A stretch of DNA of 64,000 nt from Clostridia bacterium (GTDB lineage: Bacteria; Bacillota; Clostridia; Oscillospirales; CAG-272). Positions within the stretch are counted from its first letter, which is position 1. The number at the start of each line of letters is the position of its first letter. This document shows positions 2,190 to 24,240 of this stretch, one piece after another. Below the pieces are notes generated by a model. That model was not told where the DNA came from. It saw only the letters and a list, made by a program, of their open reading frames with translations, and did no database searches. The DNA is taken from contig JAFUOH010000013.1 in the NCBI GenBank assembly GCA_017482055.1, positions 3,416 through 67,415 of the forward strand. The letters run 5' to 3'. The translations under genes and the position numbers were made by a program.

Positions 2190-2990
2190 TTACCTTTCTT
2201 TCGGTTTACTTCCCTTGCTCTTGCCGAGTTCGGGAGTCTTGGTTGTTTCCTTGGGTCTCTCGCTTCTCTTGCGATTGATCTCCTCTAACTTTTTTCTTAC
2301 GGACGGCTTACGGTCTGACTTGCCCTCGCTCTTATCATCAGATCTTTCGGGATTTTTGGTAGCCGTCGAGGATGGCTCGGACGGAAGGTTTCTTTCGGGT
2401 TCCGTTCCCTCCGGCACCCTCGTAGTTTCCGTCCGAGCCGCAGTAGGGTTTTCCATTTCGTTCTCCTCCTTTTGGATAGGCTTGCCAAGGATCTCATCGG
2501 CAAGCTTCTCGTCGGCACTCTTTTCGGGTTTGTCGTTTTCGGGAACGTCGGTCTTTCCTTCGTCCTTTTCGATCTCCTCTTTTTCACGAATGATCTCTGC
2601 GCGAAGGTCAGCCGTATTGACTCTTGCAAGATTGAATCGCTCGGTAATTCGTGCGATCTTGCTCTCGTCCTCTGCTCTGACCATAACGTCAAAGACACCG
2701 CCCGTTTTGTCTTTTTCCTTCAGCACGGTGTAGAGGATACCGTACTGCTTGGCGACCTCTTTGAATTTCGGCAGGTCGCTATCCCTAAAGGTGTAAACCT
2801 TCAAGGGCTTTCCGCTTCGGAGCATACTTTCAAGTCTCGCGGCTCCCTTTGTTTTCTTTTGCTCACGAGCAATCGAATACAAAAGAACAGCGGCGTTCTT
2901 CGCACCGCTACCCGAGAGCTTGACAAGAACCTCCGCGCCGTTCAGCATCATCCTCATGACCTGATCAGCAGCTTCTCCGGATGTGTTCAT
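2190..2990 (-). CDS. pcfB: PcfB family protein (DUF3801-like)
   Basis: The N-terminal 130 aa (QVMRMMLNGAEVLVKLSGSGAKNAAVLLYSIAREQKKTKGAARLESMLRSGKPLKVYTF...YGILYTVLKEKD) match the PcfB pattern seen next to relaxases in Firmicutes elements. The C-terminal half is low-complexity and charged. There is a 4-nt ATGA overlap with the relaxase stop. Confidence 0.7.
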   Translation of the reverse strand: MNTSGEAADQVMRMMLNGAEVLVKLSGSGAKNAAVLLYSIAREQKKTKGAARLESMLRSGKPLKVYTFRDSDLPKFKEVAKQYGILYTVLKEKDKTGGVFDVMVRAEDESKIARITERFNLARVNTADLRAEIIREKEEIEKDEGKTDVPENDKPEKSADEKLADEILGKPIQKEENEMENPTAARTETTRVPEGTEPERNLPSEPSSTATKNPERSDDKSEGKSDRKPSVRKKLEEINRKRSERPKETTKTPELGKSKGSKPKER

Positions 2991-4321
2991 CTCTTGTCCT
3001 CTCTTTCGTTAGTTTTTGTTTTCGCATCGTTGGTATCTCTCCTTTGAAGATTCTTGTCGGGAATGTGAATCGTGTTGACCACCGCCTCAACAACACCGCT
3101 TCTTGCCGCAATGTCCTCGCAGAGTTTCATCTGCTTTCGTAGATCTGCCATCTGCGAAGATAACTCTGAGATCTCGTCCTTTATCGGTTGCATCGTCTCG
3201 GTATCGTGCATACGGCGAAGCTTGTTGCGGAGCTTGGCTCTCTTATATGCGAGTTCCTTAAACTTGTTGGATAACCCCTCGGTAAACAAAGAAAGCTCCT
3301 CGGCAGTATTGATGTTATACTTACCAAGAAGCTTTGCTTCCTCCGAATACATACGCGCACGTTTCACATCTTCCTTGATAACCGCGTATGCTTCACGATT
3401 ATTCGGTCTTTCTTTTGGCAGAGCACCAAGAAGATAACAATAATGGATATACAACGCATACAGACCTTTCGGTTTTTCTCTCGGCACATACGCCATATAC
3501 GGAATGACACGACGATTTCTCGCGTTATCTATGATTCGCTCCTTCACATCCTCCAAGGTGTATCCCTCTCCGAGCTTATCCATACGGAAGAACTTTTTAC
3601 TCGCGTCGGGACGTATGCGAAGATACTGCCCTCTCCACTCAAGCGTGTATCCGAGTGCTTGAAAAAGGTTCTCGAACATTCTGAAACTCGTACTGTGCTT
3701 GATTGCAATATCCATATCCCGACGTATGATTCCTCGCACGGTCGGTCTACCTTCTTGCTCGGCTTTGAGCTCACCGATGTGTCGGGTCTTTCCCCTCTGT
3801 GGGTTCTTGATTACGGATAGTCCGTGCTCTTGACACAATCGGTCGGAAACCTCGCGCATCCTGCGGTAGTTATCTCCGTCAGCATGAAATCTTCGTCCAT
3901 CAAAACCCGTCGCACATATCGCGTAGTGGTTATGAACGTGTCGGGTATTGAGGTGGGTTGTGACAAGCACCGGAAAGTTTTCTCCCCACATTTCTTTTGC
4001 GAAGGCGATACCGATAGCGTGTGCGGTTTTCGGATCGACTTCATCTTCCGCAAAGCTCTGATAGGCGTGATAGGCAACGCGATCCGAGTTGGTGGGATAG
4101 GTTGAAAGATTTTTGTTCATCACACTCAAAACATTTTCGGGTGTGCAACCTATTCCCGTAACGTACAACCTCTGCTCTGTTTTACTCTCATCGGCATCAT
4201 ACCAAATAAGATTTTTGAGAGCTTCGCTTGTTTCGTTCTCGGTGGTCTTATCGAGATCACAGACATACTCAATCAGTTGTCGGAGTCGTTCCTTGACCGC
4301 CCATATCTTCGTTGTAGCCAA
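2987..4321 (-). CDS. MOB relaxase (MobA/VirD2-type relaxase/mobilisation nuclease domain)
   Basis: N-terminal MATTKIWAVKERL..., then a YHAYQSF (catalytic Tyr region) and the His-rich metal motif THLNTRHVHNHYAI. The start codon is TTG at 4321, with GAGGTG 9 nt upstream. It overlaps the MobC 3' end by 53 nt. Confidence 0.85.
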   Translation of the reverse strand: MATTKIWAVKERLRQLIEYVCDLDKTTENETSEALKNLIWYDADESKTEQRLYVTGIGCTPENVLSVMNKNLSTYPTNSDRVAYHAYQSFAEDEVDPKTAHAIGIAFAKEMWGENFPVLVTTHLNTRHVHNHYAICATGFDGRRFHADGDNYRRMREVSDRLCQEHGLSVIKNPQRGKTRHIGELKAEQEGRPTVRGIIRRDMDIAIKHSTSFRMFENLFQALGYTLEWRGQYLRIRPDASKKFFRMDKLGEGYTLEDVKERIIDNARNRRVIPYMAYVPREKPKGLYALYIHYCYLLGALPKERPNNREAYAVIKEDVKRARMYSEEAKLLGKYNINTAEELSLFTEGLSNKFKELAYKRAKLRNKLRRMHDTETMQPIKDEISELSSQMADLRKQMKLCEDIAARSGVVEAVVNTIHIPDKNLQRRDTNDAKTKTNEREDKR

Positions 4322-9492: not shown

Positions 9493-9532
9493 AACAAACC
9501 TCCATTCGTCAAATTGGAATTTGGAGAACTGT

Positions 9533-9967: not shown

Positions 9968-9979
9968 TGAAACACCTCA

Positions 9980-10022
9980 TCAAATTCTTATTTTCCTAAC
10001 TGTTCGACCTATTGGAATTTGT
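9980..10022. repeat. 43-bp cassette-junction repeat, copy 2
   Basis: Identical to 8862-8904. It lies between the stop of the Lnu-like gene and the start of aac(6'). Degenerate or partial copies occur at 7132-7156 (22/25 over the right arm), 9493-9532, 8038-8081 and 10520-10550. Confidence 0.9.
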
Positions 10023-10024
10023 CG

Positions 10025-10686: not shown

Positions 10687-13600
10687 TTATCTGTCGGTAC
10701 GATCAGATCTCGTTCTGCTGTTCTCGTCGCGCTCATCCTCGCTCTGCTCCTCTGCGCCGTCAACGATCTCGTTCTCTCGCTTATCCATATTCAGCTCAGC
10801 ATTGAGTTCTGCAAGTCGCTTGCATTTTTCCTCAAGCTCTGCTTCTCTTGCAAAGGGTTTAGCGATCTCCGCCTTCGCGTTCTCGACCTGCTTATGCAGT
10901 TCTTCAAGCTGAAGCTCACAGCCCTGCTTTCGCTTTTCAAAGGCTTCGATAGCATTGTCAAGACGGATAATGATACCGTTAGCATCTTGTCCGAGTGGAA
11001 CTTTGTGAAAGAGTTTTCCTCGCAAATTGATAAAGAACTCTCTACCAAAGGTATCAAATCCAATCTCCATTTTGAAACCACGATATTCACCAAGAGGTCT
11101 TTCGTCGGGCGAGTTGATGCGCTCACATACAGCGAGGATCGCCTTACCCGCTTCTGCCTTTTCGGTATAGGTCGTGCCCATAACTTCCATCGGGGAGAAT
11201 CCGTTTTCATTCGGGAACGTGGAGTTCTTTGCGGTTTCAATATCCTCGATCAAGCACTTAATTCTCTCCTCTTGGTCGGCAATATTCCTCGGGAACTTCT
11301 TGATAAGAGCGTCCTCAAGGCTGTACCTCTGACTCAAGTGATCTGCCTTTTGAAGCTTCAGTTTTGCAACGTCGGCATCAAGCTGCATCTTCTCCATAAT
11401 CTTCGGATTGCCGCTTGCAAGAGCCTTGATCTCCGCATAGGATAGGGCGGTCTCGTCCACGTCCTCTGCACTTCTTACCGGAGATTTACTCGTCATAATC
11501 TGCGAAATAAACTTCTGTTTGCTCTCAAGAAGCTGATAGGAATAGGCGTCGAAGGTTCCCTCCGTAACGTAACGGTAAAGGTCAACCTCGGGGTTGGAGT
11601 TTCCTTGTCGGACAATTCGACCTGCTCTCTGTTCAAGGTCAGCGGGTCTCCACGGAACGTCAAGGTCGTGAAGTGCAATGAGTCTCTGCTGCACGTTTGT
11701 GCCGGCTCCCATCTTGAAGGTTGAACCCATAAGCACTCTGACTTGTCCACGGCGAACCTTGGCAAAAAGTTCTTTCTTCTTTGTGTCGGTATCTGCCGCG
11801 TGAATGAAAGCGATCTCCTCGGGCGGTATTCCCCGCTCAATGAGTTTATTTCTGATGTCATCATAAACATTGAAGCTGCCGTCATCCTTCGGTGTGGAAA
11901 GGTCGCAGAACACAAGCTGTGCCGCCTTTTTATCCGCATACTTTTCCCAAATCTCGTAGATGTTCTGAACGCAAGTGTTGACCTTACTTCCATCATAATC
12001 TCCAAGACCAATATCGACAAGTCGCTGATCAAGTGCAGCCTTTCGTCCGTCGTTTGTGATGAGAAGCATATTGTCCTCTGTTGAGCTTACCATACGGTTG
12101 TGAACCCTTTCGGCTCTCTCCGCAAAGGACTCAACGAGTTCTTTCTGCTCCTCACTTGCTTCGACCTTGACGATGTGGTAGTGCGCTTCGGGTACGGGAA
12201 GTTTGAGCATATCTGCGGTCTGAATGTCCGCCGTCTGCTTAAACATTGCCATCAGCTCGGGGATGTTAAAGAACTTTGCAAAGCGTGTCTTTGCTCGGTA
12301 TCCGCTACCATCGGGTGCAAGCTCTATTGCCGTTACCGTCTCGCCAAAGGTCGATGCCCAAGCATCAAAATTGAGAAGTCCGCGCAACTGAAGCTCATCG
12401 TACTGAAGGTATTTCTGCATCGTGTAAAGCTCTACCATCGTATTGGAGATAGGCGTACCCGTTGCAAACACACAACCCTTTCCTCCTGTCAGTTCGTCAA
12501 GATAACGACACTTCATATAGAGGTCGGAGGATTTCTGTGCTTCGGTCTGTGAGATACCTGCTACGTTTCGCATCTTGGTATATGCCGCGAGGTTCTTATA
12601 GAAGTGTGCCTCGTCCACAAACAGACGGTCAACGCCAAGCTCCTCAAAGGTCACGACGTCATCCTTTCGGCTTTGGTCATTGAGCTTTGCAAGTTTTGTC
12701 TCGATCTGCTTTCTCGCTTTGGCGAGCTGCTTGACGGTTACTCTGTCTCCTCTTGATGCTTGGATCTCCTCAATACTTTGCAGTATTTGGTCACGCTCAT
12801 TGTTAAGCGTTTCGATCTGTCTCTCAAGGGACATCGGGATCTTCTCAAACTGTGAGTGACCGATGATAACAGCATCGTAGTCACCCGTAGCAATTCTTGC
12901 ACAGAACTTCTTACGGTTTTTGGTTTCAAAGTCTTTCTTGGTAGCGACAAGGATATTTGCGCTCGGATAGAGTTGCAGATATTCACTTGCCCACTGTTCA
13001 ATAAGATGGTTGGGAACAACAAACATACTCTTGTTACAGAGTCCGAGTCTCTTGCTCTCCTGCGCCGCCGCAACCATCGTAAAGGTCTTACCTGCACCGA
13101 CAACGTGTGCAAGGAGTGAGTTACCGCCGTACATAATTCTTGCCACGGCATCGCTCTGATGCTTTCTCAAGGTAATCTCGGGGTTCATACCAAAGAACTT
13201 GATGTGGCTACCGTCAAACTCACGGGGGCGAATACTGTTGAAACGCTCGTTATAGAGCTTACAAAGTCTCTCTCGCCTTGCCGGGTCTTTCCATATCCAC
13301 TCGTCAAACGCTCTCTTGATCTGCTCCTGCTTACCTTGTGCAATTGCAGTTTCCTTTTTGTTGAGGACTTGCTTTTTGTTTCCGTTCTCGTCAATCGGGT
13401 AATCAAAGATACGCACGTCCTTGAGGTTCAAGCTCTCCTCGATGATCTCATAACCGTTGATTCGATGAGTACCGTAAGCGTTTACCGCCTTGACATTTCC
13501 TCTGTCTCTTGTCTTATTGGTTATGACCCATTGTGAGGTCTGCGGAATGAATTTGACCTCGATAAGCCTTCTCATATAGAAAGGCGTTCCGAGCAATTCG

Positions 13601-16600
13601 TGGACGAAATCTTGAATATCCTCTTGCGGTATCCAAGTGGAACCGAGTCGTACACCGATCTCGGCAGCACTCAGATCTTCGGGCTGTACCTTCTCAAGTG
13701 CTTCTACGTTATCCGCAAATGCGGGGTCTGCTTCGGCTTTCCATTTGGCTTCCTTGAGCTTTTCTCGCACGTTACCCGAAAGGTATTCGTCAGCCATAAG
13801 GTAAGGTCTTGCGCCGATCTTTTCGCCGTGCTCGGGGTTGCGGAAGATAACGCCCTTGAGGTCGGAGAACAATTCCTCCTCGCTCTTGCCCGTCAGTTCG
13901 CTCATATACTCCATATCCACCATAGCTCGCTCACCCATAGAGAGTGCAAGAGCTTCGCTTGCCGTGTCCACTCGGTCAACCGTGACCTGCGGCTTGATGG
14001 TTCGCTTGGTGAACATATCCGCCTTTGCTTTGAGTTCCTTGTTTTCATCAAGTATCTCAAGAGAACAAAGGAGGAAATAGGAGTTATCGTCGCTGAACAC
14101 CATCGCGTTTCCTCGGCTATTGATAAGTCCATACTTTGCAGTAAACTCATCATACTGCTTATTGAGTTTCGCTTGGAGTTCTTTGATCTCGCTCTCGGGG
14201 TAATCCTCAAGCTGCGCTTCGATCAGAGCCTTCACCGTGTCTCGGATACCGATCATACCCTTGATACGGTTCTCGCCCGTTACCGAAGTCTCGACGGGGT
14301 TCATAACGCTGTTCTGTCGGTAGTACACCTTTCCGTCTACAATCGTAAAGGAAAAGTTCTTCACGGTCGGGTCTGCGGGAATGGATTTGTCCTCTGTTCC
14401 CTCTGTCAGTTCGTCAAGCTCAACCTCGCTGATCTCTGCGTGGATATTGCTGATTGCTTCTGTCAAAAGCTCTCCGAGATCTTCGTCCTCATAAGGCTTG
14501 CAGGTGGGTTCTGGTCCATAGGGACCGGAACGCATCACTACCTCACCGAGCACCATATCGGGGTGGTCGATAAAGTATTGGTTCATCTTGATTCCGTTTT
14601 CATCGGTTCCAAGGTGTACCCAATCCTCGTCTCTCTCGATAATTCGATCTCGCTTTTGGAGGAAGATAATATCCGACACGACCTTGTTCGCGCCTGCTCC
14701 GTCAAAGGTATTGTTGGGCAGACGGATAGCACCGAGGAAGTCGGCTCTCTGCGAGATATACTTTCTGACAGACGAGTTCTCTTTGTCAAGAGTACCCGAG
14801 CTTGTGATGAAAGCGATCACACCACCGGGGCGAACCTTATCCAAGGTTTTCGCAAAGAAATAGTCGTGAATGAGGAAGTTGTACTTGTCGTACTTCTTGT
14901 CAAGGAGCTTGAAATCATTGAACGGCACGTTACCGATTGCAACATCAAAGAAGCTATCGGGGAAATGAGTTTTCTCATATCCGTCGATGGTGATACCATT
15001 CTTCTGATAGAGCTGCCTTGCAATTCTACCCGAAAGGCTATCAAGCTCAACACCGTACATCTTGGCATCCATACTCTCTGGGATAAGACCCATAAAGTTA
15101 CCGACACCGCATGAAGGCTCAAGCACGTTTCCTCTCTTAAATCCCATATTCTCAAGAGCGCTATACATCGCCTTGATAACAACGGGCGGCGTATAAAAAG
15201 CCGTCAAAGTCGATTCTTTGGCGGCTTCATATTCTTCGGGAGAGAGTGTGGTGTAAAGCTCGGTAAACTCCGAGTGCCAATTATCTTTGGTCTCATCAAA
15301 GGCATCGGCAAGACCGCCCCAACCCGAATACTGTGCAAGTATCTCTTGCTCCTCGGGTGTTGCCAAACGGTTATCGAACTCAAGCTCGTGCAAGAGGTTG
15401 ATCGCCGCGATGTTCTTTCGGAACTTCTCTTTTGCTCCACCCATTCCGATCTCGTTATCGGTAATGCGGTAGTTGTGCTTTTCGCTATCGGGTATCTCAG
15501 GATGCGTGTTATACACGGGCAAAGTCTTTCTCGGCTTTTCCTTCTCGACAAGCTGCGGAATACCCATTCCGTATTTCTCATTGTACTGTTCAATAAGATC
15601 ATCCGAAACCGAAATCAGCGCATCAAACACAAGATTGTTCAGCTCGTATTCGATCAGATCGTGAAGTGAATCATATTTGCTTACCTCTACGATGTCATCG
15701 GCAAGGTATTTCTCAATCTTGAAATCCACAAGGTTTACGACAACTTGGATGGGAATTTCATCATCGGTAATAGTCGTATAACCGATACCGATGTTTGTCA
15801 GATCGGAAAAATCCACCGATTCGGAATTGTACTCCTCAGCACAATAATCCTCAATGAGCTTCTTTGCGACCTCAAGCTCGGTCGGTTCCCTACTCGGTAC
15901 TCGCTCGATGTGTGGCTCTGCTTTTTCGGCTCTGTCGGCTGCTCTTTCCTCGGGGGGTCTGTCATCGTTCAGTATCGGATATCTTGAGAACAGAAGGCTG
16001 ATATTGCCCTTATCCAAATACTTTTCAAACTCATAGCGATCCATACTGACCGCTTCTTGCCCGGGTTCACTCGGCATCGTATACCAAATGTCGTGCTCGT
16101 CTATGCGCTCGATCTCAAGGTGAACTCCGTCTTTTCCCTCAAAGGAGGCAAATAGCGTGTCACCCTCGTGGTACTCTTTACCGTTTTCGGTAGTAAAGAT
16201 ATTGGCTTCGGCAAAACCGTTAACCCTCTGAAAACCATTGAGATCTTTCAAAGCTTCGCTATGCTCGGCATAACGGAAGATCTGACCGTTACTTCCGATG
16301 AACTGTCCCGTGACATTATCAAAAATGCCTTGGATGCCACCTTCAAACGGCAGACGCCGGAGTGAGAAACGATGGGTAACCTCTCCCTTAAGACGAGGTT
16401 TCTCCACCTGCTCAAGTTCTTCCGCAATGGAGATAAGCTCCTCTCTTGCTTCTGTACCAAAGCCGTGGTAGTAATACTCATCCAATAAGAAACGCTTTGC
16501 AACATCATGGAAGTCCTCATCACCGACATCAACAAGTGTCTGCCTTGCTTCGGAACCGAGCTTATCAAAGAATACGCTGTAATCCTCATTCTCCTTGAGC

Positions 16601-19600
16601 GCGATGATCTGCTCAAAGGTGACTACGTTCTCAACAAACTGTCCACCTGCTGTGCTATCGGGATTAAAATAGAGCCAAGTTACCTCGCCCTTTTCTTCGT
16701 CCACATAGAAACGGTCATCGCTGAAGCGATACTCATACAAGCGCAGTATTTCTTTTCCATCAGCGGGTAAGATCTCCGCGATCTCCTCGTCGGTGTAGCT
16801 CTGATTGGCTTTCGGCTTTTCCTTGATTGCAAACTCCTTATCTTCCTCTGCGATAACCACCTTAAAGCCTTTATCTTGGAGCTTTTGCAGATACTTATCC
16901 AAGGTGTGATAAGGAAATCCGCACATAGGAACTCTTGTAGGTCTGTCGGGTACGCTTCTGCCCGTAAGTGTAAGCTCAAGGGCGTCGGATGCTTCTACTG
17001 CATCTTGGTCAAGAAGCTCATAGAAGTCTCCTACTCGGATAAGCGCCATTCGGTCGGGATAGTGAGTTTTCGTAATCGTAAATCTTTCCCAAACATCGGT
17101 CTTTGCGGGAATGGAAAGTTTTTCAACGTCGCTCTCCAAAAGGATTTCTTCTGCTTCTTCATCTTCATTCATAAGAGAAGCGAAAATCTCCTCGGTTCTC
17201 TGCTCGTGCTCGATCTGCGGCAAGATCTTTTCAATCTCACTCTTACAACGGTCAAAGCTATCAAGGTACTGATTTGCATTGCGGTGACGTCTCATATCAA
17301 TAAGTCTGTCATTCTCGATGGCAGACTCAAGACCCGTAACATACCCCAAGATATTCGGGATAGAGGTCTTTTTGAGTATCTTTTCGGGTATGCGCTTTGC
17401 CTGCTCTTTGCACCATTGGTAGGTCTCATTCGATTGATAGATCGCAAGTGCTACCTTTGCAGCTTCACGGATAAGATCTGCATTTGCCACAAAGTTTTGC
17501 GGCACTTCGGGCGGTATCTCGCGGTCGAAAATATCGGGGAGATTATCTTCTCCGACAAGCTCAAGAATCTGTCGGCGGTAAGATATGATATGGTTACGAA
17601 CCAAATTCATATTGACGCCATCTTCCCAAAAGGGATCGCCCGAACCTTCGGCTTTAATCTGATTCCACCTTGCGTAAGACTCCTCCATCTTTGCCACAAG
17701 TGCATCAACCGACGGCTCGTTCTTTTTACCCTTGCGCGTCTGCTTAGGCGGTGTTCCCGGCTTCGGCTTTTCCTCCTTAAACTCTACCTTTGGAGCAGGT
17801 CGGGGTTCTTTCAGAAGTCCGTCATTCAGCGGGTTTTCACGGATACGCTTAAGGAAGGTATCAAGCTCCATTTCAAGAGGAATGAGTGTACCGTCAAAGA
17901 GCTCCACCTTATCTCCTGCAAGTGACAAAATCTCATATTCGTCCTTGCCGATGTGTACGGTCACACCAAGGTGCAGATCGTACTCTGTGTCGGGTAATTC
18001 TTCGATGATAGGCTCGTTTACCTCTGCGACGGGTTCTTGCACTACTTCCTTCTTCTCGGGCGCAAAGGGCGTTTTCTTGCGGTAGGGAGAGCCGGGAAAC
18101 AGATTATATCTGCCCTCGGAATAATCCTTTACGGTATCAAGGGTTTGCTTATCTCGGTTATAACTTTCCGTGCCCGGGAACTGTTTGTCCAAGGCTTCTT
18201 GCATCATATCTATGATCTCAAGCAAGCGGTCTTTATTCTCGATCTGTTTTGCAATATCGTTGACAGCAATCCAAAAATCTGTCGTTTTATAAACGTCATA
18301 AGGATAACGCACGTCAAGCATCTTGTCCGAATAGAAGTTTTTGATCTTCCAACCAATATCCTTCCTTTCGTAGCTATCCATTTCGGCTTTGTCCTCATCG
18401 GACAGATATACGCCTTTACGGATAAGCTCGTCGATACGCTTTGCCACCTGCGACCATTTAAGGTGCATACCCGTGTTACCGCTACGAAGTCCACCGTAGA
18501 TCACCCAACCTTTAGGACTATGGTCATCCCCGATTCTACCGCCCGAGGAACCTCCCGTACCGAAACTGTCCGAAAGATGCTTGGCTCTTTTGGTGTTATC
18601 TTTCTCTCTCAAGAAGAAAGAATAATGCTTGAGTTTGGTATCCGTTCCTTTTTCAAGTAGCGCCGCATCGAACTTGTCTTGTGTGACAAACTGCTTGGGA
18701 GGGAGAATATACGGGTCTGCTTCGGGAAAATCGATAGGCTCTCTTAGGTGCATTTCCAAGTAAGACATATACTGCTCTGCGTTTTCCAAATAGCGAAAAC
18801 GCGGAGGATATTTTTCAAGCAAAGGCATTCTTGCTCTCAATTCTCTTACTTGCTGTGCTCCCTTTTCGGGATCGTTCAAATTCTTCGCAAATAACTCTCT
18901 CGCCTCGTAATACATCAAGTTCGGCTTAAGCCAAAACTTTTGCTCGTCGGGGATCTCTCCAAACACATCGCCAAGCAAGGTGCGAACCTTATCCGAGATA
19001 AGATCACACCATACCTCTTTTGCCTTTTCTGCTTCTTGCTGTGAGAGATATTGACCCAAGTTCATCAGTTCTCTGACTCGCTTGTCAACAATATCCCAAG
19101 GTATCAGCACGGAACTGTATTCCGATACTCTATCTCCGGTAGATATGCGGATACCCGCATCATCCCATTTAGCGGAATAGTTCTTATCGTTAACCGTAAT
19201 ACCAACACTATCGCTCTGATATTCGCGGCGCAGATAAGGAATCGTTTCTTCGCTGCCTTTGGCTCTGCGATAATACTCATAAATTCGCATATTGCTATTT
19301 CGGGTACAACCGCCAAGCCTTAACAGCTCGTCGATAACCTCCTGCGAGATACGCATCTGACTTGTGCTATCTGCTTTCTCTTGGGGAGTGCTTTCTGCTG
19401 CCGTCTGTACCTCGGGCATATCCATATCAAAGAGAGACATTTGGTGATCTTCCTTGACCACGGGCTTTTCAAGGTAATTCTTATCGGTGATAAGTGCCTC
19501 AACAAGTCTTGTGACAAATGCCCAATCCATACGGTTCTCCGCCGTTCTCGACGTGAAGCTACCCGTATAGAGAAGCAGGCTTTCATCATCGGCTCTGTAA

Positions 19601-21009
19601 CCGAGATGATCTTCTGTTCCCTGCTTGTAGAACTCCGCAAAAAGTAAAGGCGGGTATGCACTCTTTACATACTCCGCCTTTTCTGCGTCGCTCTTATCTG
19701 AAGTTAAAAAAGACACGATTTCTTCCTTGCTGTGTCGCAAGTAGTCACCGTGTCTTAAGATTTGGATGAGACTTTCGGGGTCGCTGATCTCGGGAAGTGT
19801 GCTGTCACTTATGCGTAGATTAGGGACGTCAACACTTCTTCCTCTGCTGAATTCTTGATCGAGTTCATCATCTGTACCCACTGCATCGGATTCTCTGCTT
19901 TCAGCTTCTCCGATACCCCAAGGCTCTGTGCCATCCGGGATATACTCTCCGAGATCTGTGCTTTCGCCGTCTCGTCGATCTCGTGAAGATAACTGTTCAG
20001 CCTGCCCTCGGTCAGTATCGTCGTGTACGTTCCCTTTCGGTGCTGTTTCAAGAAATTCAATCTCATCTGACCGTACTTCCCGATTGTGTGGTTCGTCTGC
20101 TCGGGCAGCTCCAAGTTCGGGATCTGTACTCCGTTCTGTGTCCTGTAAGTCAACGTCATTGATATTACCTCCGTTTCGATTTAGTGTTTCTGCTTTACCG
20201 CCATTATTATACTCGGTTTCACTTTTACCGTCAAATGTGCGATTTTCTCTTTGGATGCTTTTCTCAACACTCTTTACCGTCCTCTCGATCTCTCGCAGAC
20301 AAATCTCGGAAATATCGCTTGTAGCGGTTCCGAGAATGTTTACGGTCGCAGGGGTGTTAAACTCATGCACCCATTCAAAGCTCTCTGCACCAACAAACGG
20401 CTCTGCATTGAAGCCGAGACGGGTAAGCACCGTATAAGCAACACTCGCTTGCACGGTAACAAGAAATCTCACGCGGAGATTATCTTCGTCATACTCCTCA
20501 AGAAAGCTTCCCTCCTTTTCGTAGGAAAGCTCATGCAGATAATCCGTAATGTTATCCGCACCGAGATTGATTGCGGCGGCGATGACCGCATCACTGATCT
20601 TTTCTCTTTGCTTTTCATCGTCGATAAACCGATTCTGCAAAGCTTCGATAATATCTCCTTCGTATTCGGGTTTGATACCCCAAATATCGAAAGGCTTGTT
20701 ATCGCGGTCGTGTGTGTCGCTGACATCGAAAACGTACTTGAGGTAGTTCTTATCTCCTCGTCCGTCGATCAGAGCGATACCCGTTGCTCCTCGTTTCACC
20801 CACCGTCCAAAGTGTTGATTCCACAACTGCGTTTCCGCACACGCGGTCGCATAGGGTCTTTGTGCGTAGATAAGCACTTGGTCTGCAAACGGGTATTTGT
20901 ACTGATACGCTGCCGAGTGCAAAAAAGCTCTCCACGCCACCGAGTCCGATGTGATGTCTTTTATCGTCCGCTTATACAGTTCGGTAATCAAGTCTATTTT
21001 TCTCGGCAT
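10687..21009 (-). CDS. Giant polyvalent conjugative-element protein (3,440 aa): ArdC-N-like module, MutS-domain-I-like module, N6-adenine DNA methyltransferase, SNF2/DEAH helicase, coiled-coil C-terminus
   Basis: Single uninterrupted ORF with ATG at 21009 and AAGGAG 8 nt upstream. Motifs located on the DNA:
- RVGDFYELL (17011-17031, aa 1327).
- MTase motif I LEPSCGVGNF and motif IV NVPF (14920-14931, aa 2027).
- Helicase Walker A HVVGAGKTF (13081-13107).
- DEAH box LFVDEAHF (12601-12624).
- Motif VI QRAGRIVRQGN (11599-11631). Confidence 0.9.
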   Translation of the reverse strand: MPRKIDLITELYKRTIKDITSDSVAWRAFLHSAAYQYKYPFADQVLIYAQRPYATACAETQLWNQHFGRWVKRGATGIALIDGRGDKNYLKYVFDVSDTHDRDNKPFDIWGIKPEYEGDIIEALQNRFIDDEKQREKISDAVIAAAINLGADNITDYLHELSYEKEGSFLEEYDEDNLRVRFLVTVQASVAYTVLTRLGFNAEPFVGAESFEWVHEFNTPATVNILGTATSDISEICLREIERTVKSVEKSIQRENRTFDGKSETEYNNGGKAETLNRNGGNINDVDLQDTERSTDPELGAARADEPHNREVRSDEIEFLETAPKGNVHDDTDRGQAEQLSSRDRRDGESTDLGEYIPDGTEPWGIGEAESRESDAVGTDDELDQEFSRGRSVDVPNLRISDSTLPEISDPESLIQILRHGDYLRHSKEEIVSFLTSDKSDAEKAEYVKSAYPPLLFAEFYKQGTEDHLGYRADDESLLLYTGSFTSRTAENRMDWAFVTRLVEALITDKNYLEKPVVKEDHQMSLFDMDMPEVQTAAESTPQEKADSTSQMRISQEVIDELLRLGGCTRNSNMRIYEYYRRAKGSEETIPYLRREYQSDSVGITVNDKNYSAKWDDAGIRISTGDRVSEYSSVLIPWDIVDKRVRELMNLGQYLSQQEAEKAKEVWCDLISDKVRTLLGDVFGEIPDEQKFWLKPNLMYYEARELFAKNLNDPEKGAQQVRELRARMPLLEKYPPRFRYLENAEQYMSYLEMHLREPIDFPEADPYILPPKQFVTQDKFDAALLEKGTDTKLKHYSFFLREKDNTKRAKHLSDSFGTGGSSGGRIGDDHSPKGWVIYGGLRSGNTGMHLKWSQVAKRIDELIRKGVYLSDEDKAEMDSYERKDIGWKIKNFYSDKMLDVRYPYDVYKTTDFWIAVNDIAKQIENKDRLLEIIDMMQEALDKQFPGTESYNRDKQTLDTVKDYSEGRYNLFPGSPYRKKTPFAPEKKEVVQEPVAEVNEPIIEELPDTEYDLHLGVTVHIGKDEYEILSLAGDKVELFDGTLIPLEMELDTFLKRIRENPLNDGLLKEPRPAPKVEFKEEKPKPGTPPKQTRKGKKNEPSVDALVAKMEESYARWNQIKAEGSGDPFWEDGVNMNLVRNHIISYRRQILELVGEDNLPDIFDREIPPEVPQNFVANADLIREAAKVALAIYQSNETYQWCKEQAKRIPEKILKKTSIPNILGYVTGLESAIENDRLIDMRRHRNANQYLDSFDRCKSEIEKILPQIEHEQRTEEIFASLMNEDEEAEEILLESDVEKLSIPAKTDVWERFTITKTHYPDRMALIRVGDFYELLDQDAVEASDALELTLTGRSVPDRPTRVPMCGFPYHTLDKYLQKLQDKGFKVVIAEEDKEFAIKEKPKANQSYTDEEIAEILPADGKEILRLYEYRFSDDRFYVDEEKGEVTWLYFNPDSTAGGQFVENVVTFEQIIALKENEDYSVFFDKLGSEARQTLVDVGDEDFHDVAKRFLLDEYYYHGFGTEAREELISIAEELEQVEKPRLKGEVTHRFSLRRLPFEGGIQGIFDNVTGQFIGSNGQIFRYAEHSEALKDLNGFQRVNGFAEANIFTTENGKEYHEGDTLFASFEGKDGVHLEIERIDEHDIWYTMPSEPGQEAVSMDRYEFEKYLDKGNISLLFSRYPILNDDRPPEERAADRAEKAEPHIERVPSREPTELEVAKKLIEDYCAEEYNSESVDFSDLTNIGIGYTTITDDEIPIQVVVNLVDFKIEKYLADDIVEVSKYDSLHDLIEYELNNLVFDALISVSDDLIEQYNEKYGMGIPQLVEKEKPRKTLPVYNTHPEIPDSEKHNYRITDNEIGMGGAKEKFRKNIAAINLLHELEFDNRLATPEEQEILAQYSGWGGLADAFDETKDNWHSEFTELYTTLSPEEYEAAKESTLTAFYTPPVVIKAMYSALENMGFKRGNVLEPSCGVGNFMGLIPESMDAKMYGVELDSLSGRIARQLYQKNGITIDGYEKTHFPDSFFDVAIGNVPFNDFKLLDKKYDKYNFLIHDYFFAKTLDKVRPGGVIAFITSSGTLDKENSSVRKYISQRADFLGAIRLPNNTFDGAGANKVVSDIIFLQKRDRIIERDEDWVHLGTDENGIKMNQYFIDHPDMVLGEVVMRSGPYGPEPTCKPYEDEDLGELLTEAISNIHAEISEVELDELTEGTEDKSIPADPTVKNFSFTIVDGKVYYRQNSVMNPVETSVTGENRIKGMIGIRDTVKALIEAQLEDYPESEIKELQAKLNKQYDEFTAKYGLINSRGNAMVFSDDNSYFLLCSLEILDENKELKAKADMFTKRTIKPQVTVDRVDTASEALALSMGERAMVDMEYMSELTGKSEEELFSDLKGVIFRNPEHGEKIGARPYLMADEYLSGNVREKLKEAKWKAEADPAFADNVEALEKVQPEDLSAAEIGVRLGSTWIPQEDIQDFVHELLGTPFYMRRLIEVKFIPQTSQWVITNKTRDRGNVKAVNAYGTHRINGYEIIEESLNLKDVRIFDYPIDENGNKKQVLNKKETAIAQGKQEQIKRAFDEWIWKDPARRERLCKLYNERFNSIRPREFDGSHIKFFGMNPEITLRKHQSDAVARIMYGGNSLLAHVVGAGKTFTMVAAAQESKRLGLCNKSMFVVPNHLIEQWASEYLQLYPSANILVATKKDFETKNRKKFCARIATGDYDAVIIGHSQFEKIPMSLERQIETLNNERDQILQSIEEIQASRGDRVTVKQLAKARKQIETKLAKLNDQSRKDDVVTFEELGVDRLFVDEAHFYKNLAAYTKMRNVAGISQTEAQKSSDLYMKCRYLDELTGGKGCVFATGTPISNTMVELYTMQKYLQYDELQLRGLLNFDAWASTFGETVTAIELAPDGSGYRAKTRFAKFFNIPELMAMFKQTADIQTADMLKLPVPEAHYHIVKVEASEEQKELVESFAERAERVHNRMVSSTEDNMLLITNDGRKAALDQRLVDIGLGDYDGSKVNTCVQNIYEIWEKYADKKAAQLVFCDLSTPKDDGSFNVYDDIRNKLIERGIPPEEIAFIHAADTDTKKKELFAKVRRGQVRVLMGSTFKMGAGTNVQQRLIALHDLDVPWRPADLEQRAGRIVRQGNSNPEVDLYRYVTEGTFDAYSYQLLESKQKFISQIMTSKSPVRSAEDVDETALSYAEIKALASGNPKIMEKMQLDADVAKLKLQKADHLSQRYSLEDALIKKFPRNIADQEERIKCLIEDIETAKNSTFPNENGFSPMEVMGTTYTEKAEAGKAILAVCERINSPDERPLGEYRGFKMEIGFDTFGREFFINLRGKLFHKVPLGQDANGIIIRLDNAIEAFEKRKQGCELQLEELHKQVENAKAEIAKPFAREAELEEKCKRLAELNAELNMDKRENEIVDGAEEQSEDERDENSRTRSDRTDR
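19809..20159 (-). CDS. TnpV-like ORF (116 aa) embedded in the +1 frame of the giant ORF; expression unproven
   Basis: ATG at 20159 is preceded by GGAGGT with an 8-nt spacer. The translation is MTLTYRTQNGVQIPNLELPEQTNHTIGKYGQMRLNFLKQHRKGTYTTILTEGRLNSYLHEIDETAKAQISESISRMAQSLGVSEKLKAENPMQWVQMMNSIKNSAEEEVLTSLIYA. It follows the TnpV family pattern I recall (..Y....G.Y..P.L.LPE.....IGKYG..R..YLK.HR...Y..L...G.L..HL.E.D..A......M....GV.E.LKA...M.WV..MN.I...AEE.V...LIY). Confidence 0.5.
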   Translation of the reverse strand: MTLTYRTQNGVQIPNLELPEQTNHTIGKYGQMRLNFLKQHRKGTYTTILTEGRLNSYLHEIDETAKAQISESISRMAQSLGVSEKLKAENPMQWVQMMNSIKNSAEEEVLTSLIYA

Positions 21010-21031
21010 TGTTTTGCTCCTTCTTTAGATT

Positions 21032-21859
21032 TTATCGGGCGTCACGCGCTGACACCCGTTCTTTCTTTTCGGTTGGGAAATCCCAACCATATACTTGTGC
21101 GATAATCCCACCGAGCTTATCGGTCACACGGTCAATATCCTCCTGCGTGGCTTTGCCCTCATAGAACTTATCAAGGAAGTCCTCTTTATCGTCCGAAGAA
21201 AGTCCGTCCTTGAACTTGCGGTAATACAGATAGTTCGTTCCATCGTGGTGTATCTGTGTCGAGCACAGATCTCCGTCTCGGTCAACGTACCATTCAGCCA
21301 TATCGCAATCGGTATAAAGGCAATCCGCGATATTACCCGATTCGATAAGCTTATATCCGTGCGCTCTGCCGTTCCAACGACCGATATTGCCGAAAACGAT
21401 AATGTCGTTTCCGCATTGGATCTTCAAGTTGTAACGCTCGTCACTGAGATAATCGTTGTTGACCTCATACATTTCTTCGGTCAACTGCTCCTCGGTATAT
21501 TCGGGGTGTTCCTCTCTGAGTCCTTCCCAATCCTTGAGATCAAGGTCGATATTCGACCAAATCATGTGCTTCTCGGGGAAAGGATAAACGTGTGCTCCAC
21601 GTCTTTCCAAAACCTCAGCAAACTCGCAGATGTGGAAAGAGTTGTTGCCGACAAGAACGTGATAATCGTCGATATACTTGCAGGTGAAAGCCTTTACCTC
21701 TCCCGAAGGATAGGTCACAATGACTTGATCTCCATCGGGAATACGGAACTTCTCTTGATAGTCGGGATAGATAAATCGAATCTCTTTCGGCTCATTCATC
21801 GTCGCTCTGTCAAGAACGGCGGTGACTCCGTATCTGTTTTGAAAAACATAGTCGCTCAT
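21032..21859 (-). CDS. Hypothetical conjugative-element protein (275 aa)
   Basis: ORF tightly packed in the operon. Its start shares a base with the upstream stop (TAATG). I recognise no family. Confidence 0.55.
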   Translation of the reverse strand: MSDYVFQNRYGVTAVLDRATMNEPKEIRFIYPDYQEKFRIPDGDQVIVTYPSGEVKAFTCKYIDDYHVLVGNNSFHICEFAEVLERRGAHVYPFPEKHMIWSNIDLDLKDWEGLREEHPEYTEEQLTEEMYEVNNDYLSDERYNLKIQCGNDIIVFGNIGRWNGRAHGYKLIESGNIADCLYTDCDMAEWYVDRDGDLCSTQIHHDGTNYLYYRKFKDGLSSDDKEDFLDKFYEGKATQEDIDRVTDKLGGIIAQVYGWDFPTEKKERVSARDAR

Positions 21860-22281
21860 TATCGTTCCTCCCTATCTTTTACCTTTTTCTGTTTGGGTTC
21901 GGGTGCAATATGATTCTGCTCTGTTGCCTTACGCGCTTCTACCGCTTTCAAATAATCGTCCTTGTGCCAAGTGGTGATCACATCGTCGATAATCGCGCTG
22001 TACTCACCCTCCTTATAATACTGATTGACGGGTGCTTTCATAAGGCCCTTGTCAAGCAGTTCACGGATAGCAACGGGAGAATCGCAATCCTCCTCAAAGC
22101 AGAGATAACGACCTTCAACAAAGCCTACTGCTTGAGCTTCTTTGGAAAGGTATTCATCGGCAAGCTCACGAAGTATCATTACACCGCCGTGTCTTGCGGT
22201 CTGAACCTCAAAGGCTCCGTAGCAGAGCATCTTGCAATGATCTACCGTTCCCCAAGGAGAATACATAGGTTCTACCATCAT
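21859..22281 (-). CDS. Hypothetical conjugative-element protein (140 aa)
   Basis: N-terminal YSPWGTVDHCKMLCYGAFEVQTARHGGVMI resembles a recurrent ICE-associated domain that I cannot name. It has an ATGA overlap with the upstream gene. Confidence 0.55.
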   Translation of the reverse strand: MMVEPMYSPWGTVDHCKMLCYGAFEVQTARHGGVMILRELADEYLSKEAQAVGFVEGRYLCFEEDCDSPVAIRELLDKGLMKAPVNQYYKEGEYSAIIDDVITTWHKDDYLKAVEARKATEQNHIAPEPKQKKVKDREER

Positions 22282-22982
22282 CGTTCCTCCCTGCTATCCT
22301 TTTTTCTGATTGCTTTTCCGTTCTCATCGTAGTTTTTCGGGTCGGCACCGGGTACGTTCCAACCGAACATTGAGCCAACCTTCATAGCCTCCGCTTGCGC
22401 GGGAGATATGCCAAGTTCACGGTTCATTTCGTTTGCGGCTCTGCCGTTCCCTTGCTTACGAATGGGGGTGTATCCGCTTTGAGCAATATCTATGCGAATC
22501 TCCTCCTGCGTAGTAGGAAGATAGGCATAAGAATACAAAGGAAGTCCTTTGTCCTTAGCGAGCTTATTCATCACCATATCCTTGTCATAGCAAAAGACAT
22601 AGAAATTGTAGTCACCCGGAGTAGGAATACAACGGAGATAAAGGGCGTAGTCCTGCGTGAGAATACGGAATCCCCACTGCTCACCAAAGGGATGGGAGAC
22701 CTTACATTGAGGTTGAGTACGACAATAAGCTCTCATACTTTCGCGGTCAGAAAGAACGCCACACGGCTCTCGCATCTTGTTTATAAGGGCATCAAAGATA
22801 ACCTTGAACTTTTCATCGTTCAGTTCGGGGAAATTATGAGGAAACCAAGTCGTCCAAAACTCTTTACCGCCTCCACCGAAATCCCCTCGCAAATATCCAA
22901 TGCAGCCAAGCTCCTTTTCTTCATCCTTATTGAAAAAGAAAAGGTCTTTTTCTTCTTTCATTTTGATAGCTTCAAGCACCAT
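22278..22982 (-). CDS. Hypothetical conjugative-element protein, paralog A (234 aa from the ATG at 22982)
   Basis: Paralogous to 22984-23700: GYLRGDF / GWLKGNF, EQWGFRILTQDYALYL / ECWGFRVLTEDYAWYI, LAKDKGLP in both, and FGWNVPGADPKNYDENG / FGWDTPVANPKNYDENG. The start is moved from 23039 to 22982 because AGGAGG lies 7 nt upstream and this start removes the overlap. Confidence 0.6.
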   Translation of the reverse strand: MVLEAIKMKEEKDLFFFNKDEEKELGCIGYLRGDFGGGGKEFWTTWFPHNFPELNDEKFKVIFDALINKMREPCGVLSDRESMRAYCRTQPQCKVSHPFGEQWGFRILTQDYALYLRCIPTPGDYNFYVFCYDKDMVMNKLAKDKGLPLYSYAYLPTTQEEIRIDIAQSGYTPIRKQGNGRAANEMNRELGISPAQAEAMKVGSMFGWNVPGADPKNYDENGKAIRKKDSREER

Positions 22983-22983
22983 C

Positions 22984-23700
22984 TTATCTCCTCCTCTCTT
23001 TGGGTTCTTCCACGGGAACGTAGAAGTGACCGTTTTCATCGTAGTTCTTGGGATTAGCCACGGGAGTATCCCAACCGAAGATCACACCGTTCTCCATTGC
23101 CGCAACCTGCTCGATAGTGAGGTTAAGAGCTTCATTCTGCTCATTGGCATAAGCGCGGTTCTCAACCATATTGCCACCGTACTGAGGGAAGCTGTCGTAC
23201 AGATCTTCGCCATAACGGATAAGGATGCGCTCACCTGTATATTTCAGAACACCGTAGCAGGTTTCGGGAAGTCCTTTATCTTTGGCAAGTACGGTCATAA
23301 GTGCTTTGCGGTTATAGCAATAGATCGTTACGTGCCGCACGGGGTTCCAAGGGGTAAGAGCGATATACCAAGCATAGTCCTCGGTCAGCACTCTGAATCC
23401 CCAACACTCGCGGTTGAAGGAATACGGAACGTGGTCGTGTACCTTGTCCCGACAAAAGGCATTGAGATCTGAAAGAGTGCGGAGCATATACCCCGCACTC
23501 TCGCTTGCAAGAAAAATACAAAGCGACTCAAGCTCATAACGAATCATATAGTCGTTATCTCCCGTCATTTCCATATCCGAGAGCACGAGTCTATCCTCAT
23601 TGAAATTACCCTTGAGCCACCCGATAAATCCCTTGTCCGTCTCGCCCTGCTCGGTGAAAAGATACTTTTCATCCCATAATGCAAGGCGTTCAAGCTTCAT
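22984..23700 (-). CDS. Hypothetical conjugative-element protein, paralog B (238 aa)
   Basis: See paralog A. ATG at 23700 with AAGGAG 8 nt upstream. Confidence 0.6.
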   Translation of the reverse strand: MKLERLALWDEKYLFTEQGETDKGFIGWLKGNFNEDRLVLSDMEMTGDNDYMIRYELESLCIFLASESAGYMLRTLSDLNAFCRDKVHDHVPYSFNRECWGFRVLTEDYAWYIALTPWNPVRHVTIYCYNRKALMTVLAKDKGLPETCYGVLKYTGERILIRYGEDLYDSFPQYGGNMVENRAYANEQNEALNLTIEQVAAMENGVIFGWDTPVANPKNYDENGHFYVPVEEPKERRR

Positions 23701-23950
23701 CGTCTACACTCTCCTTGCCTTCGGTTTCCTCCTTAACTTCCTTGGCTTCGGGTTTTGCCAAGAAAGCCAAGATACCGACCGATTTGATCTCGTCCTGCAA
23801 CTCGCAGAGAGCCGTAAGCTCCGGCTTTGTGATATTCGGGATAGAAAGGATGTCCTTGAGCTTGAGCGCCATGATCTGCTTCTCCGACGTGATGCCAGAC
23901 TCAATGAGACGAGTAACCAATCGGAGATTTGTCTTGTTTACTTCTGCCAT
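23690..23950 (-). CDS. Hypothetical protein (86 aa)
   Basis: ORF whose start shares a base with the upstream stop, with AGGGAGGAG upstream. No family recognised. Confidence 0.5.
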   Translation of the reverse strand: MAEVNKTNLRLVTRLIESGITSEKQIMALKLKDILSIPNITKPELTALCELQDEIKSVGILAFLAKPEAKEVKEETEGKESVDDEA

Positions 23951-24240
23951 TATCTCTCCTCCCTATCTCTGTTTGTCTTTTTCTTGGGTTCATTCTCTTT
24001 GGGATATTCGCCAATGCTTCGCTTAAAAGCGACCTCGGCTTCTACGCGGTCATACAAGTCCTTGTTTGCCGCTTCTTTGTCCGTAAAGTAATGACCCCAA
24101 AAATAGTTATTGCCCCCGGTACATTCCCAAGTAACATACCGAGCGCGGTCGTGGATATTCTCACCAAGCACAAACTCCGTATTTCCTACGGGAAAAGACT
24201 TGATGATCTCATATCCTGCATTGATTCTCTTATCTTGCAT
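23950..24240 (-). CDS. Hypothetical protein (96 aa)
   Basis: ORF in the operon, with AAGGAGGA upstream. Ends in ...NRDREER. Confidence 0.5.
   Translation of the reverse strand: MQDKRINAGYEIIKSFPVGNTEFVLGENIHDRARYVTWECTGGNNYFWGHYFTDKEAANKDLYDRVEAEVAFKRSIGEYPKENEPKKKTNRDREER

Follow-up and report, generated by a model that had tools for sequence, protein, structure and literature searches.

Background

The closest described relatives of the protein analyzed here are polyvalent proteins of Firmicutes and Bacteroidetes, in which MutS-I domains were reported by Iyer, Burroughs, Anand, de Souza, and Aravind (2017, J Bacteriol 199:e00245-17; PMC5512222). As set out in the parts of that work that concern these domains, about 80% of the MutS-I carriers have ArdC-N, the MutS-I domain is predicted to be DNA-binding, and polyvalent proteins hold many domains of unknown role. 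A literature search found no experiment on any polyvalent-protein MutS-I module. In E. coli MutS, the canonical domain I comprises amino acids 2–115 and contacts the mismatch through F36 and E38, while in the MSH2–MSH6 heterodimer the motif is kept only by MSH6; MutS–DNA contacts in general are treated in the same source (PMC3848065). Two further systems bear on the protein described here, namely the phage P1 virion protein DarB, a methyltransferase–helicase antirestriction protein for which protection of incoming DNA in cis has been proposed, and ArdC of R388/pSa, an ssDNA-binding antirestriction protein.

The window, a 64,000-nucleotide stretch of DNA from a gut Clostridia bacterium, encodes a 3440-aa polyvalent protein (10687..21009, minus strand, from the ORF list and its translation) with an isolated MutS domain I. 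Compared with the MutS-I proteins as described in those parts of PMC5512222, it differs in nothing essential: the setting is again a giant protein of a Firmicutes conjugative element, and the domain again occurs together with a DarB-like methylase–SNF2 dyad and a putative ArdC-N-type header, although the window protein itself is not named there. The architecture type was already published in 2017 from computational analysis, and the window protein adds another member, so that the value of the present analysis lies in confirmation and a few added details rather than in discovery. Relative to the same parts of that work, these details are the figures on how often the motif is retained, the absence of the C-terminal segment, the multiple and degenerate copies, the resemblance to the MutS of the host phylum, and a solo gene.

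Results

Minus-strand translation of 16843–17088 gives exactly the peptide, residues 1308–1389, in which an earlier note on this DNA had recognized an isolated mismatch-recognition domain; a plus-strand reading of the same interval gives a meaningless translation and was discarded. The module as delimited by Pfam MutS_I, the envelope of a custom HMM, PDB alignment, and fold match comprises residues 1305–1392 (16834..17097, minus strand). When the whole protein was searched, Pfam MutS_I (PF01624) matched residues 1310–1396 at E = 1.1e-18 and 68 bits, covering profile positions 7–92 of 113, and the excised segment scored 73 bits; the gathering cutoff of the family is 20.6 bits. A phmmer search of the PDB aligned the module with residues 8–103 of E. 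coli MutS (E = 5.6e-14). Its AlphaFold2 model had block-mean pLDDT values of 86–97 across most of the module, and the best PDB fold matches found with Foldseek were all MutS domain I at a probability of 1.00, with an rmsd of 1.3–3.1 Å over 79–85 columns to the solved domains. The module shares this fold and 36–38% identity with domain I of bacterial MutS1 (PDB 1E3M, 7AI6), and identity to Clostridia MutS is only 35–39%. The profile match and the superposition establish residues 1305–1392 as a MutS1-type mismatch-recognition domain, specifically the core of domain I, and confirm the original observation of an isolated domain I with a Phe-X-Glu motif inside a polyvalent protein. It is present as a single copy, as a search of the window protein with the custom HMM for a further, degenerate MutS-I copy found none at E ≤ 1.

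No Pfam match to MutS_II, III, IV, or V (connector, core/lever, clamp, and ABC ATPase) was obtained anywhere in the 3440 residues at E ≤ 1, which bears out the claim that no further MutS domains are present. The 421 residues that follow the module had no Pfam match at E ≤ 0.1, and the NCBIfam MutS equivalogs were matched only at model positions 2–88 of 793, with scores far below their cutoffs. Unlike bacterial MutS, therefore, the module is without connector, core, clamp, ATPase, and HTH, which leaves no sliding clamp, ATP switch, or MutL recruitment, and it is presumably a monomer within the larger protein. The proposed colinearity with domain I held for the core, including GDFYE, and failed at the C-terminal end, where the note had overlooked that roughly the last 20 residues of the canonical domain are missing and that a disordered linker is present instead. 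The model is disordered with low pLDDT beyond residue ~1392, conservation among the modules internal to polyvalent proteins collapses after E. coli position ~94, where model confidence also ends, and the canonical tail KGxVxRxVxRxxTPG is kept in 0 of 43 internal modules. In the window protein, the linker carries the acidic peptide D1407-EEIAEIL-1414 (16768..16791, minus strand) in place of this tail. Peptides of the related form D-E-E-T-G-E-[IV]-L were found after 9 of the 43 internal modules, as opposed to 1 of 92 modules classed as canonical or ambiguous, so the peptide was rejected as a general feature of internal modules and represents a subfamily signature.

The mismatch-contact motif, G1327-D-F1329-Y-E1331 (17017..17031, minus strand), aligns with G34-D35-F36-Y37-E38 (GDFYE) of E. 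coli MutS, F1329-Y-E1331 falling on F36-Y37-E38, and is intact as had been reported. In the model of the module, G-D forms a turn and F-Y-E opens the second strand of a β-hairpin. Among 45 internal modules, only 28–74% identical to that of the window, the motif positions were kept at 96% (G34), 89% (D35), 87% (F36), 91% (Y37), and 93% (E38), ranking all five among the most conserved columns, and R58, P67, M68, G70, and P72 were also well conserved. An intact F-x-E occurred in at least one module copy in all 31 of these polyvalent proteins, a figure to be read with the caveat that the sequences were picked by similarity to a motif-containing query, which inflates conservation in the best copies; unselected extra copies kept F-x-E in only 8 of 14 cases. 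Degenerate extra copies (LDSYE, GDKYE, DDGYE, GMYYN) nonetheless score as MutS-I, which suggests that folding is independent of the motif. That divergent polyvalent modules so largely retain Phe-X-Glu is consistent with a putative functional constraint on the DNA-contact motif and with the DNA-targeting role suggested in the earlier note.

The 3440-aa protein consists of an ArdC-N-like header, an uncharacterized middle region, the MutS-I module, and a DarB-like methyltransferase–SNF2 dyad, and this very large polypeptide with several unrelated domains, encoded beside transfer genes, is a polyvalent protein. A resemblance to phage P1 DarB is seen in the C-terminal 1600 residues, which match a DarB-like PHROG, with phrog_10089 ('DarB-like antirestriction') giving E = 0 over residues 1845–3435. 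An N6-adenine DNA methyltransferase domain was assigned at residues ~1845–2160 (14530..15477, minus strand) from phrog_10089, Pfam Eco57I, and its motifs (motif I, LEPSCGVGNF, at 1962; motif IV, NVPF, at 2027). A SNF2-type helicase/translocase was assigned at residues ~2612–3221 (11347..13176, minus strand) from Pfam SNF2-rel_dom, ResIII, and Helicase_C, with GAGKT at 2638, DEAH at 2799, and motif VI at 3127, and the same region gave partial NCBIfam matches to DrmD-like SNF2 helicases. Judged by these motifs, a DarB-like adenine methyltransferase–SNF2 dyad with intact catalytic motifs is present, in accord with the methyltransferase and translocase proposed from the sequence.

A putative N-terminal ArdC-N-like domain (residues ~1–130; 20620..21009, minus strand) was proposed from its AlphaFold model (pLDDT 86.9) and fold matches. 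The top three PDB matches were ArdC of R388 (6i89/6sna) with probabilities of 0.87–0.95, at weak E-values of 0.03–0.06 and TM scores of 0.34–0.43, and Rad4 was also among the matches. BLASTP aligned this region at E = 6e-9 with part of the ORF at 1228–2178, which has a weak Pfam ArdcN match. At the N-terminus itself, no ArdC-N HMM match was obtained from Pfam on fragments, from a scan of 31 homologues, or from a profile search against PDB sequences. From the modeled fold, this domain is probably an ssDNA-binding header. The window protein differs from ArdC in having neither an HExxH metalloprotease domain, the motif for which was sought throughout, nor a significant ArdcN profile match; a search for internal repeats in the protein also returned none.

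The gene belongs to a conjugative element integrated in the genome of an uncultured Clostridia bacterium. The same element carries a MobA/VirD2-type relaxase (2987..4321, minus strand; Pfam Relaxase, E = 9.5e-34), T4CP, primase-like, and pilus genes, and a partition (ParB) gene; on identical contigs, NikA-like, DUF3801, and T4CP genes adjoin the relaxase. No integrase was found inside the window. The identical 3440-aa protein occurs on 12 metagenome contigs, each time among the same conjugation genes, and clustering at 90% identity places it in a group of 124 members.

For the comparison with other carriers, long proteins for the architecture census were taken from an exhaustive HMMER search. 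A word-indexed homologue search with the module returned only five short fragments, and a profile search returned mostly short N-terminal fragments of true MutS; both supplied alignment rows, not architectures. Module position varies among the polyvalent proteins, which carry one to three copies, and 13 of the 31 carriers have two or three, the extra copies often being degenerate. In homologues of 71–76% identity (P0006), the module lies at the same position. It is located upstream of the methyltransferase–SNF2 dyad in most relatives (P0017, P0045, P0097, and P0123, as in the window protein), the order is reversed in P0055, and no dyad match was found in P0015, P0032, P0035, or P0106. P0156 is a solo 181-aa MutS-I gene beside a PcfJ-like conjugation gene, with no methyltransferase attached. 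Taken together, the varied positions, the range of one to three copies, and the solo gene suggest that the module is autonomous. Among the small MutS_I-only ORFs on long contigs that were considered as stand-alone genes, P0178 was rejected because it is a split mutS, with MutS_II–V and mutL directly following. The modules resemble the MutS of their own host phylum, being Bacteroidota-like or Clostridia-like. In PLSDB plasmids, tblastn with the module found no polyvalent version, the matches being only ordinary mutS genes of <50% identity on records resembling chromosomal pieces, and a genome scan yielded three short MAG contigs of Eubacteriales and nothing else.

Discussion

In the role that we consider most likely, the module would anchor the anti-restriction machinery by reading distortions in DNA, a prediction from sequence to which we assign a probability of roughly 0.55. 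The module would be a non-catalytic DNA reader whose Phe wedge and Glu contact engage bases that are mismatched, unpaired, or only weakly stacked; candidate sites are hairpins and ss/ds junctions of the transferred strand, as well as intermediates of early replication. Such contacts would help to keep the methyltransferase–translocase bound, within the recipient, to DNA of the element itself, and this DNA could thereby be shielded from restriction in cis, by analogy with P1 DNA and DarB, although DarB is a virion protein and the window protein belongs to a conjugative element. That the protein reaches the recipient is an assumption modeled on ArdC, DarB, and TraC1. The module would be unable to signal in mismatch repair, as it has no ATPase or MutL-interacting region. 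The anchor role agrees with the published inference, as given in section 27 and the methylase–helicase dyad section of PMC5512222. The suggestion of the earlier note that the module may target the protein to unusual DNA structures of the incoming element is plausible and in essence repeats this inference. The DNA affinity of intact MutS comes mostly from its clamp domains and dimerization. With neither of these, and with its C-terminus truncated, a lone domain I may have little affinity for DNA, which counts against the anchor role.

The frequent placement of the module upstream of the dyad, together with intact methyltransferase and helicase motifs, would also fit a substrate selector, in which the wedge senses a destabilized or flipped base and couples methylation by the adjacent adenine methyltransferase, during SNF2 translocation, to particular states of the DNA, for instance when it is nascent or hemimethylated. 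Against this role stand the ~450 residues without a recognized domain that separate the module from the methyltransferase, the reversed order in P0055, the four carriers without a dyad match, and the solo gene P0156. We consider this role unlikely.

A somewhat less likely idea is that a domain captured from MutS has been reduced to a folded linker or interaction surface and reads no DNA. Polyvalent proteins do hold many domains without an assigned role, Phe-X-Glu has been lost in some extra copies, and the C-terminal part of domain I is absent. On the other hand, every one of the 31 carriers has F-x-E intact in one copy or more, the motif residues are highly conserved even though the degenerate copies suggest that the fold does not need them, and R58, P67, M68, G70, and P72 are well kept too, all of which counts against this idea.

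A broader proposal, of which we are just as skeptical, is that MutS-I modules of mobile elements form a functional class of their own. Members of this class would read mismatches or bulges in a minimal, ATP-independent manner, having been captured repeatedly from local host-phylum MutS and sometimes duplicated, with one intact and one degenerate copy mimicking the asymmetry of the MutS dimer. They might recognize specific imperfect hairpins of the transferred strand (such as single-strand promoters or origins) or shield such structures from host MutS, which would tie mismatch recognition to the way in which conjugative DNA becomes established. The likeness to MSH2–MSH6 is that two-module relatives keep Phe-X-Glu in one copy while the other is sometimes degenerate; it goes no further than resemblance, as both modules of such relatives belong to the same polypeptide and the window protein has just one module.

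The earlier note also suggested that the module could be a decoy for host mismatch repair, for which nothing was found in support and which we regard as unlikely. By occupying mismatches or heteroduplex in the recipient, or by otherwise competing with host MutS, a decoy would dampen MMR-dependent anti-recombination or keep the incoming element from mismatch-provoked processing. Retention of the motif for mismatch specificity suits this idea, and the resemblance to host-phylum MutS could reflect mimicry of the host protein, although local capture of a gene fragment explains that resemblance equally well. To our knowledge, none of the MutL- and clamp-binding determinants of MutS lies in domain I, which leaves only competition for mismatch sites, and a monomeric domain without a clamp should compete poorly with dimeric MutS. 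Nor is there an evident need for homeologous recombination in an element with ParB and conjugation genes, of a kind that usually integrates site-specifically, and the constant company of the module is anti-restriction machinery, not recombination genes.

Finally, an artefact in which a real mutS fragment was joined to a large ORF by misassembly or pseudogene fusion is refuted, as, even though split mutS genes such as P0178 do yield short MutS_I-only ORFs in metagenomes, the identical ORF recurs on 12 independent contigs within the 124-member cluster, the P0006 homologues hold the module at the same position, its identity to Clostridia MutS is low, and the sequence on either side of it holds no remnants of mutS.

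A MutS domain I that stands alone represents a textbook sensor of DNA damage in a naturally minimal form. If it binds distorted DNA by itself, it would reveal how conjugative elements find and protect their DNA upon entry, and would provide a compact reagent for binding mismatches or bulges. Establishment functions of this element also bear on the spread of resistance, since aminoglycoside resistance genes are part of the element and it circulates across metagenomes.

A truncated MutS domain I within the polyvalent protein

The peptide reported in the earlier note is the exact minus-strand translation of window 16843-17088, corresponding to residues 1308-1389 of the 3440-aa open-reading frame at 10687-21009 (-), while the plus-strand reading of this interval produced a meaningless translation. 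The Pfam MutS_I profile (PF01624) matched residues 1310-1396 over profile positions 7-92 of 113 (E = 1.1e-18) at 68 bits, compared to a curated cutoff of 20.6 bits, and phmmer against PDB sequences aligned the segment with residues 8-103 of E. coli MutS (E = 5.6e-14), placing the G-D-F-Y-E of the module on G34-D35-F36-Y37-E38. As judged from these alignments, the resemblance to MutS far exceeds what chance would give. In MutS, F36 makes a stacking contact and E38 a hydrogen bond with the mismatched base, with specific binding abolished in F36A and discrimination abolished in E38Q (review PMC3848065). An AlphaFold2 model of the module, built with 102 sequences as input, had block-mean pLDDT values of 86-97 across most of its length, and its top PDB fold matches in Foldseek were exclusively MutS domain I (probability 1.00, rmsd 1.3-3.1 Å over 79-85 columns, 36-38% identity). 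Profile, alignment and superposition thus confirm the presence of a MutS domain I with an intact Phe-X-Glu motif in the polyvalent protein.

The rest of MutS is missing, as the earlier note had claimed: no match to MutS_II, III, IV or V was found at E ≤ 1 anywhere in the 3440-aa protein, the 421 residues C-terminal of the module had no Pfam match, and only the first ~88 positions of the NCBIfam MutS equivalog models were covered. The module also falls short of the full canonical domain I (aa 2-115; PMC3848065), with the profile match stopping at position 92 of 113 and the model disordered beyond residue ~1392. Across modules from mobile elements, conservation by column collapses past E. coli position ~94, and the canonical KGxVxRxVxRxxTPG tail is kept in none of 43 internal modules.

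The protein's remaining domains and the surrounding element

The fusion to a methyltransferase and a translocase, also described in the earlier note, is borne out by a match of the C-terminal 1600 residues to the 'DarB-like antirestriction' PHROG (E = 0) and by intact motifs of both enzymes, namely methyltransferase motifs I (LEPSCGVGNF, 1962) and IV (NVPF, 2027) and helicase motifs GAGKT (2638), DEAH (2799) and QRAGRIVRQG (3127). Neither an HExxH motif nor internal repeats were found in the protein. The N-terminal 140 residues had no HMM match; for an AlphaFold model of this domain (pLDDT 86.9), the three top fold matches were all to ArdC from plasmid R388 (probability 0.87-0.95, E 0.03-0.06), with Rad4 lower in the list. 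Residues 25-99 align (E = 6e-9) with the weak ArdcN part of a second, separate ArdC-N-like ORF of 316 aa at 1228-2178 (-), which adjoins the DUF3801 and relaxase genes and matches Pfam ArdcN below the cutoff (E = 3.4e-4). An ArdC-N-like header of the polyvalent protein is, from model and alignment, probable, not proven.

The genes near the polyvalent gene include a MobA/VirD2 relaxase, DUF3801, a Toprim/DUF3991 primase-like gene and ParB (36642-37640), and NikA-like and T4CP genes are present on identical metagenome contigs. A Tad/Flp-like pilus set occupies 24842-35350 (-), with a T2SSE ATPase (31877-33187), a CpaB-like protein (33924-34736), a prepilin peptidase (34757-35350) and a 1316-aa surface protein, an adhesin, containing six Listeria-Bacteroides repeats and a MucBP domain; many neighboring ORFs of this region have no family match. 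Between the polyvalent and primase-like genes, a cargo block at 7156-10519 (-), corresponding to 20491-24451 of loci L004 and L005, encodes aminoglycoside nucleotidyltransferases of the ANT(2'')-like and ant(6) types, a GNAT protein, a PNP/UDP phosphorylase and a protein with a metallo-beta-lactamase fold. The last of these may be an anti-defence protein, since it has a weak precomputed match to the anti-Pycsar Apyc1 family. On another contig with an identical polyvalent gene, MerR, GNAT and methyltransferase genes replace part of this block.

From ~39 kb on, the window is chromosomal (Hsp33, lipoate ligase, 2-oxoacid dehydrogenase complex, FolD, Lgt, ComEC and PFL), with proteins of the type found in uncultured Clostridia MAGs. 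A cluster of five tRNAs (Cys, Gly, Phe, Asp, Val) at 38739-39204 (-), between the ParB gene and the housekeeping genes, is the probable right-hand boundary of the integrated element. No integrase was found within the window. Close relatives of the polyvalent gene are found in Eubacteriales MAGs.

Copies, motif retention and origin of the module

Searched exhaustively with HMMER, the module returned 8772 matches, mostly true MutS, and the best 150 included about 25 proteins that carry it far inside long polypeptides, the largest of 6471 aa. Copies were mapped with a custom HMM in 31 proteins having internal or multiple modules. Two or three copies, in tandem or thousands of residues apart, were present in 13 of the 31, and a single copy in the window protein. 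Residues G34, D35, F36, Y37 and E38 were retained in 96, 89, 87, 91 and 93% of 45 internal modules, a 25-module subset of which was merely 28-74% identical to the module of the window. F-x-E was present in the best copy of 30/31 proteins, a figure biased upward because the query itself carries the motif, and in 8/14 of the extra copies, for which rank played no part in selection; all 31 proteins had at least one intact copy. Degenerate copies (LDSYE, GDKYE, DDGYE, GMYYN) were still recognizable as MutS-I, suggesting that folding is possible without the motif, and motif retention therefore points to selection on DNA contact. GETYQ was also seen among the extra copies.

Many multi-copy relatives were noted among P0007, P0009, P0010, P0011, P0013, P0015, P0016, P0017, P0023, P0032, P0035, P0045, P0055, P0097 and P0106, in which one copy has Phe-X-Glu and the extra copy is often degenerate. 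This pairing recalls the asymmetry of MSH2/MSH6; the window protein is single-copy.

When compared with loci L008-L011, the modules of P0009, P0055, P0032 and P0106 were nearer to Bacteroides/Parabacteroides MutS (best-copy identity 43-66%), while most remaining modules were nearer to Clostridia MutS, that of the window being 39% identical to Geosporobacter MutS. By sequence, then, the modules resemble MutS of the likely host phylum, which, over the 87 residues compared, tentatively suggests more than one capture from host-type mutS and not a single origin.

Solo and split forms

A stand-alone 181-aa MutS-I gene, P0156 (L012 8001-8546; P0157 is another), is present on 8 contigs. Its product is made up of an acidic tail at the N-terminus, a module carrying GDFYE and the peptide 'DMQTGEIL'. 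The stop codon of the gene overlaps a PcfJ-like gene's start, indicating translational coupling, and a serine recombinase is nearby; it appears to be a solo, mobile-element version of the module. Peptides of the D-E-E-T-G-E-[IV]-L type follow 9/43 internal modules, compared to 1/92 canonical or ambiguous MutS N-termini, and a related peptide follows the module in both solo proteins. In the window protein, the acidic peptide DEEIAEIL (residues 1407-1414, window 16768-16791 (-)) lies ~15 residues past the module.

P0178 was rejected as a stand-alone gene, as it is just the opening part of a broken mutS-mutL locus (L014 8001-10582), where a 133-aa MutS_I ORF and a 715-aa MutS_II-V ORF lie directly upstream of mutL as the result of a frameshift or assembly error. 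Many short 'MutS_I only' proteins of metagenome catalogues are likely split mutS or contig-end fragments. Numerous mutS-bearing PLSDB "plasmids" (e.g., NZ_OY725927.1, NZ_OY725741.1), with ordinary mutS, housekeeping neighbors and a non-mobilizable typing, resemble chromosomal fragments that were deposited as plasmids.

Possible role of the module

The window protein joins a kind already described, since the architecture was published in 2017. In Iyer et al. 2017 (PMC5512222), MutS-I is reported in Bacteroidetes and Firmicutes polyvalent proteins, its sole occurrence outside MutS, as probably derived from classical MutS, with ArdC-N in about 80% of these proteins; MutS-I is proposed to recognize short single-stranded stretches of the element soon after entry, and a DarB-like methylase-SNF2 dyad to protect incoming DNA in cis. 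The consulted sections of the paper make no mention of a solo form. Searches of later literature turned up only a brief remark from 2018 and no experimental work. The details added here include the multi-copy, degenerate-copy and solo-gene variants. The targeting role suggested in the earlier note coincides with the published prediction, and its interpretation is partly supported.

An established MutS domain I with an intact motif, free of ATPase and clamp and in anti-restriction and conjugative company, may act as a non-catalytic DNA reader that holds the methyltransferase-translocase on element DNA, a reading to which we assign a probability of roughly 0.55. The Phe wedge would insert where bases are unpaired or weakly stacked, with transferred-strand hairpins, ss/ds junctions or early replication intermediates as candidate sites, and the module together with the ArdC-N-like header would keep the methyltransferase-translocase there, giving cis protection. 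Against this, the module is an isolated, truncated domain I without the clamp domains, which are the source of most of the DNA affinity of MutS, and that the protein enters the recipient is an assumption drawn from analogy.

That the module instead selects substrates for the methyltransferase is unlikely, given the ~450 residues between the two, the carriers without a dyad match and the existence of a solo gene. A purely structural or protein-binding role is somewhat less probable still and is disfavored by motif retention. The decoy against host mismatch repair, also raised in the earlier note, is slightly more doubtful again, as nothing in this analysis supports it and domain I is not known to contain any of the partner-binding sites of MutS. 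An assembly artefact is refuted, because the identical 3440-aa protein recurs on 12 contigs and belongs to a 90%-identity cluster of 124 members.
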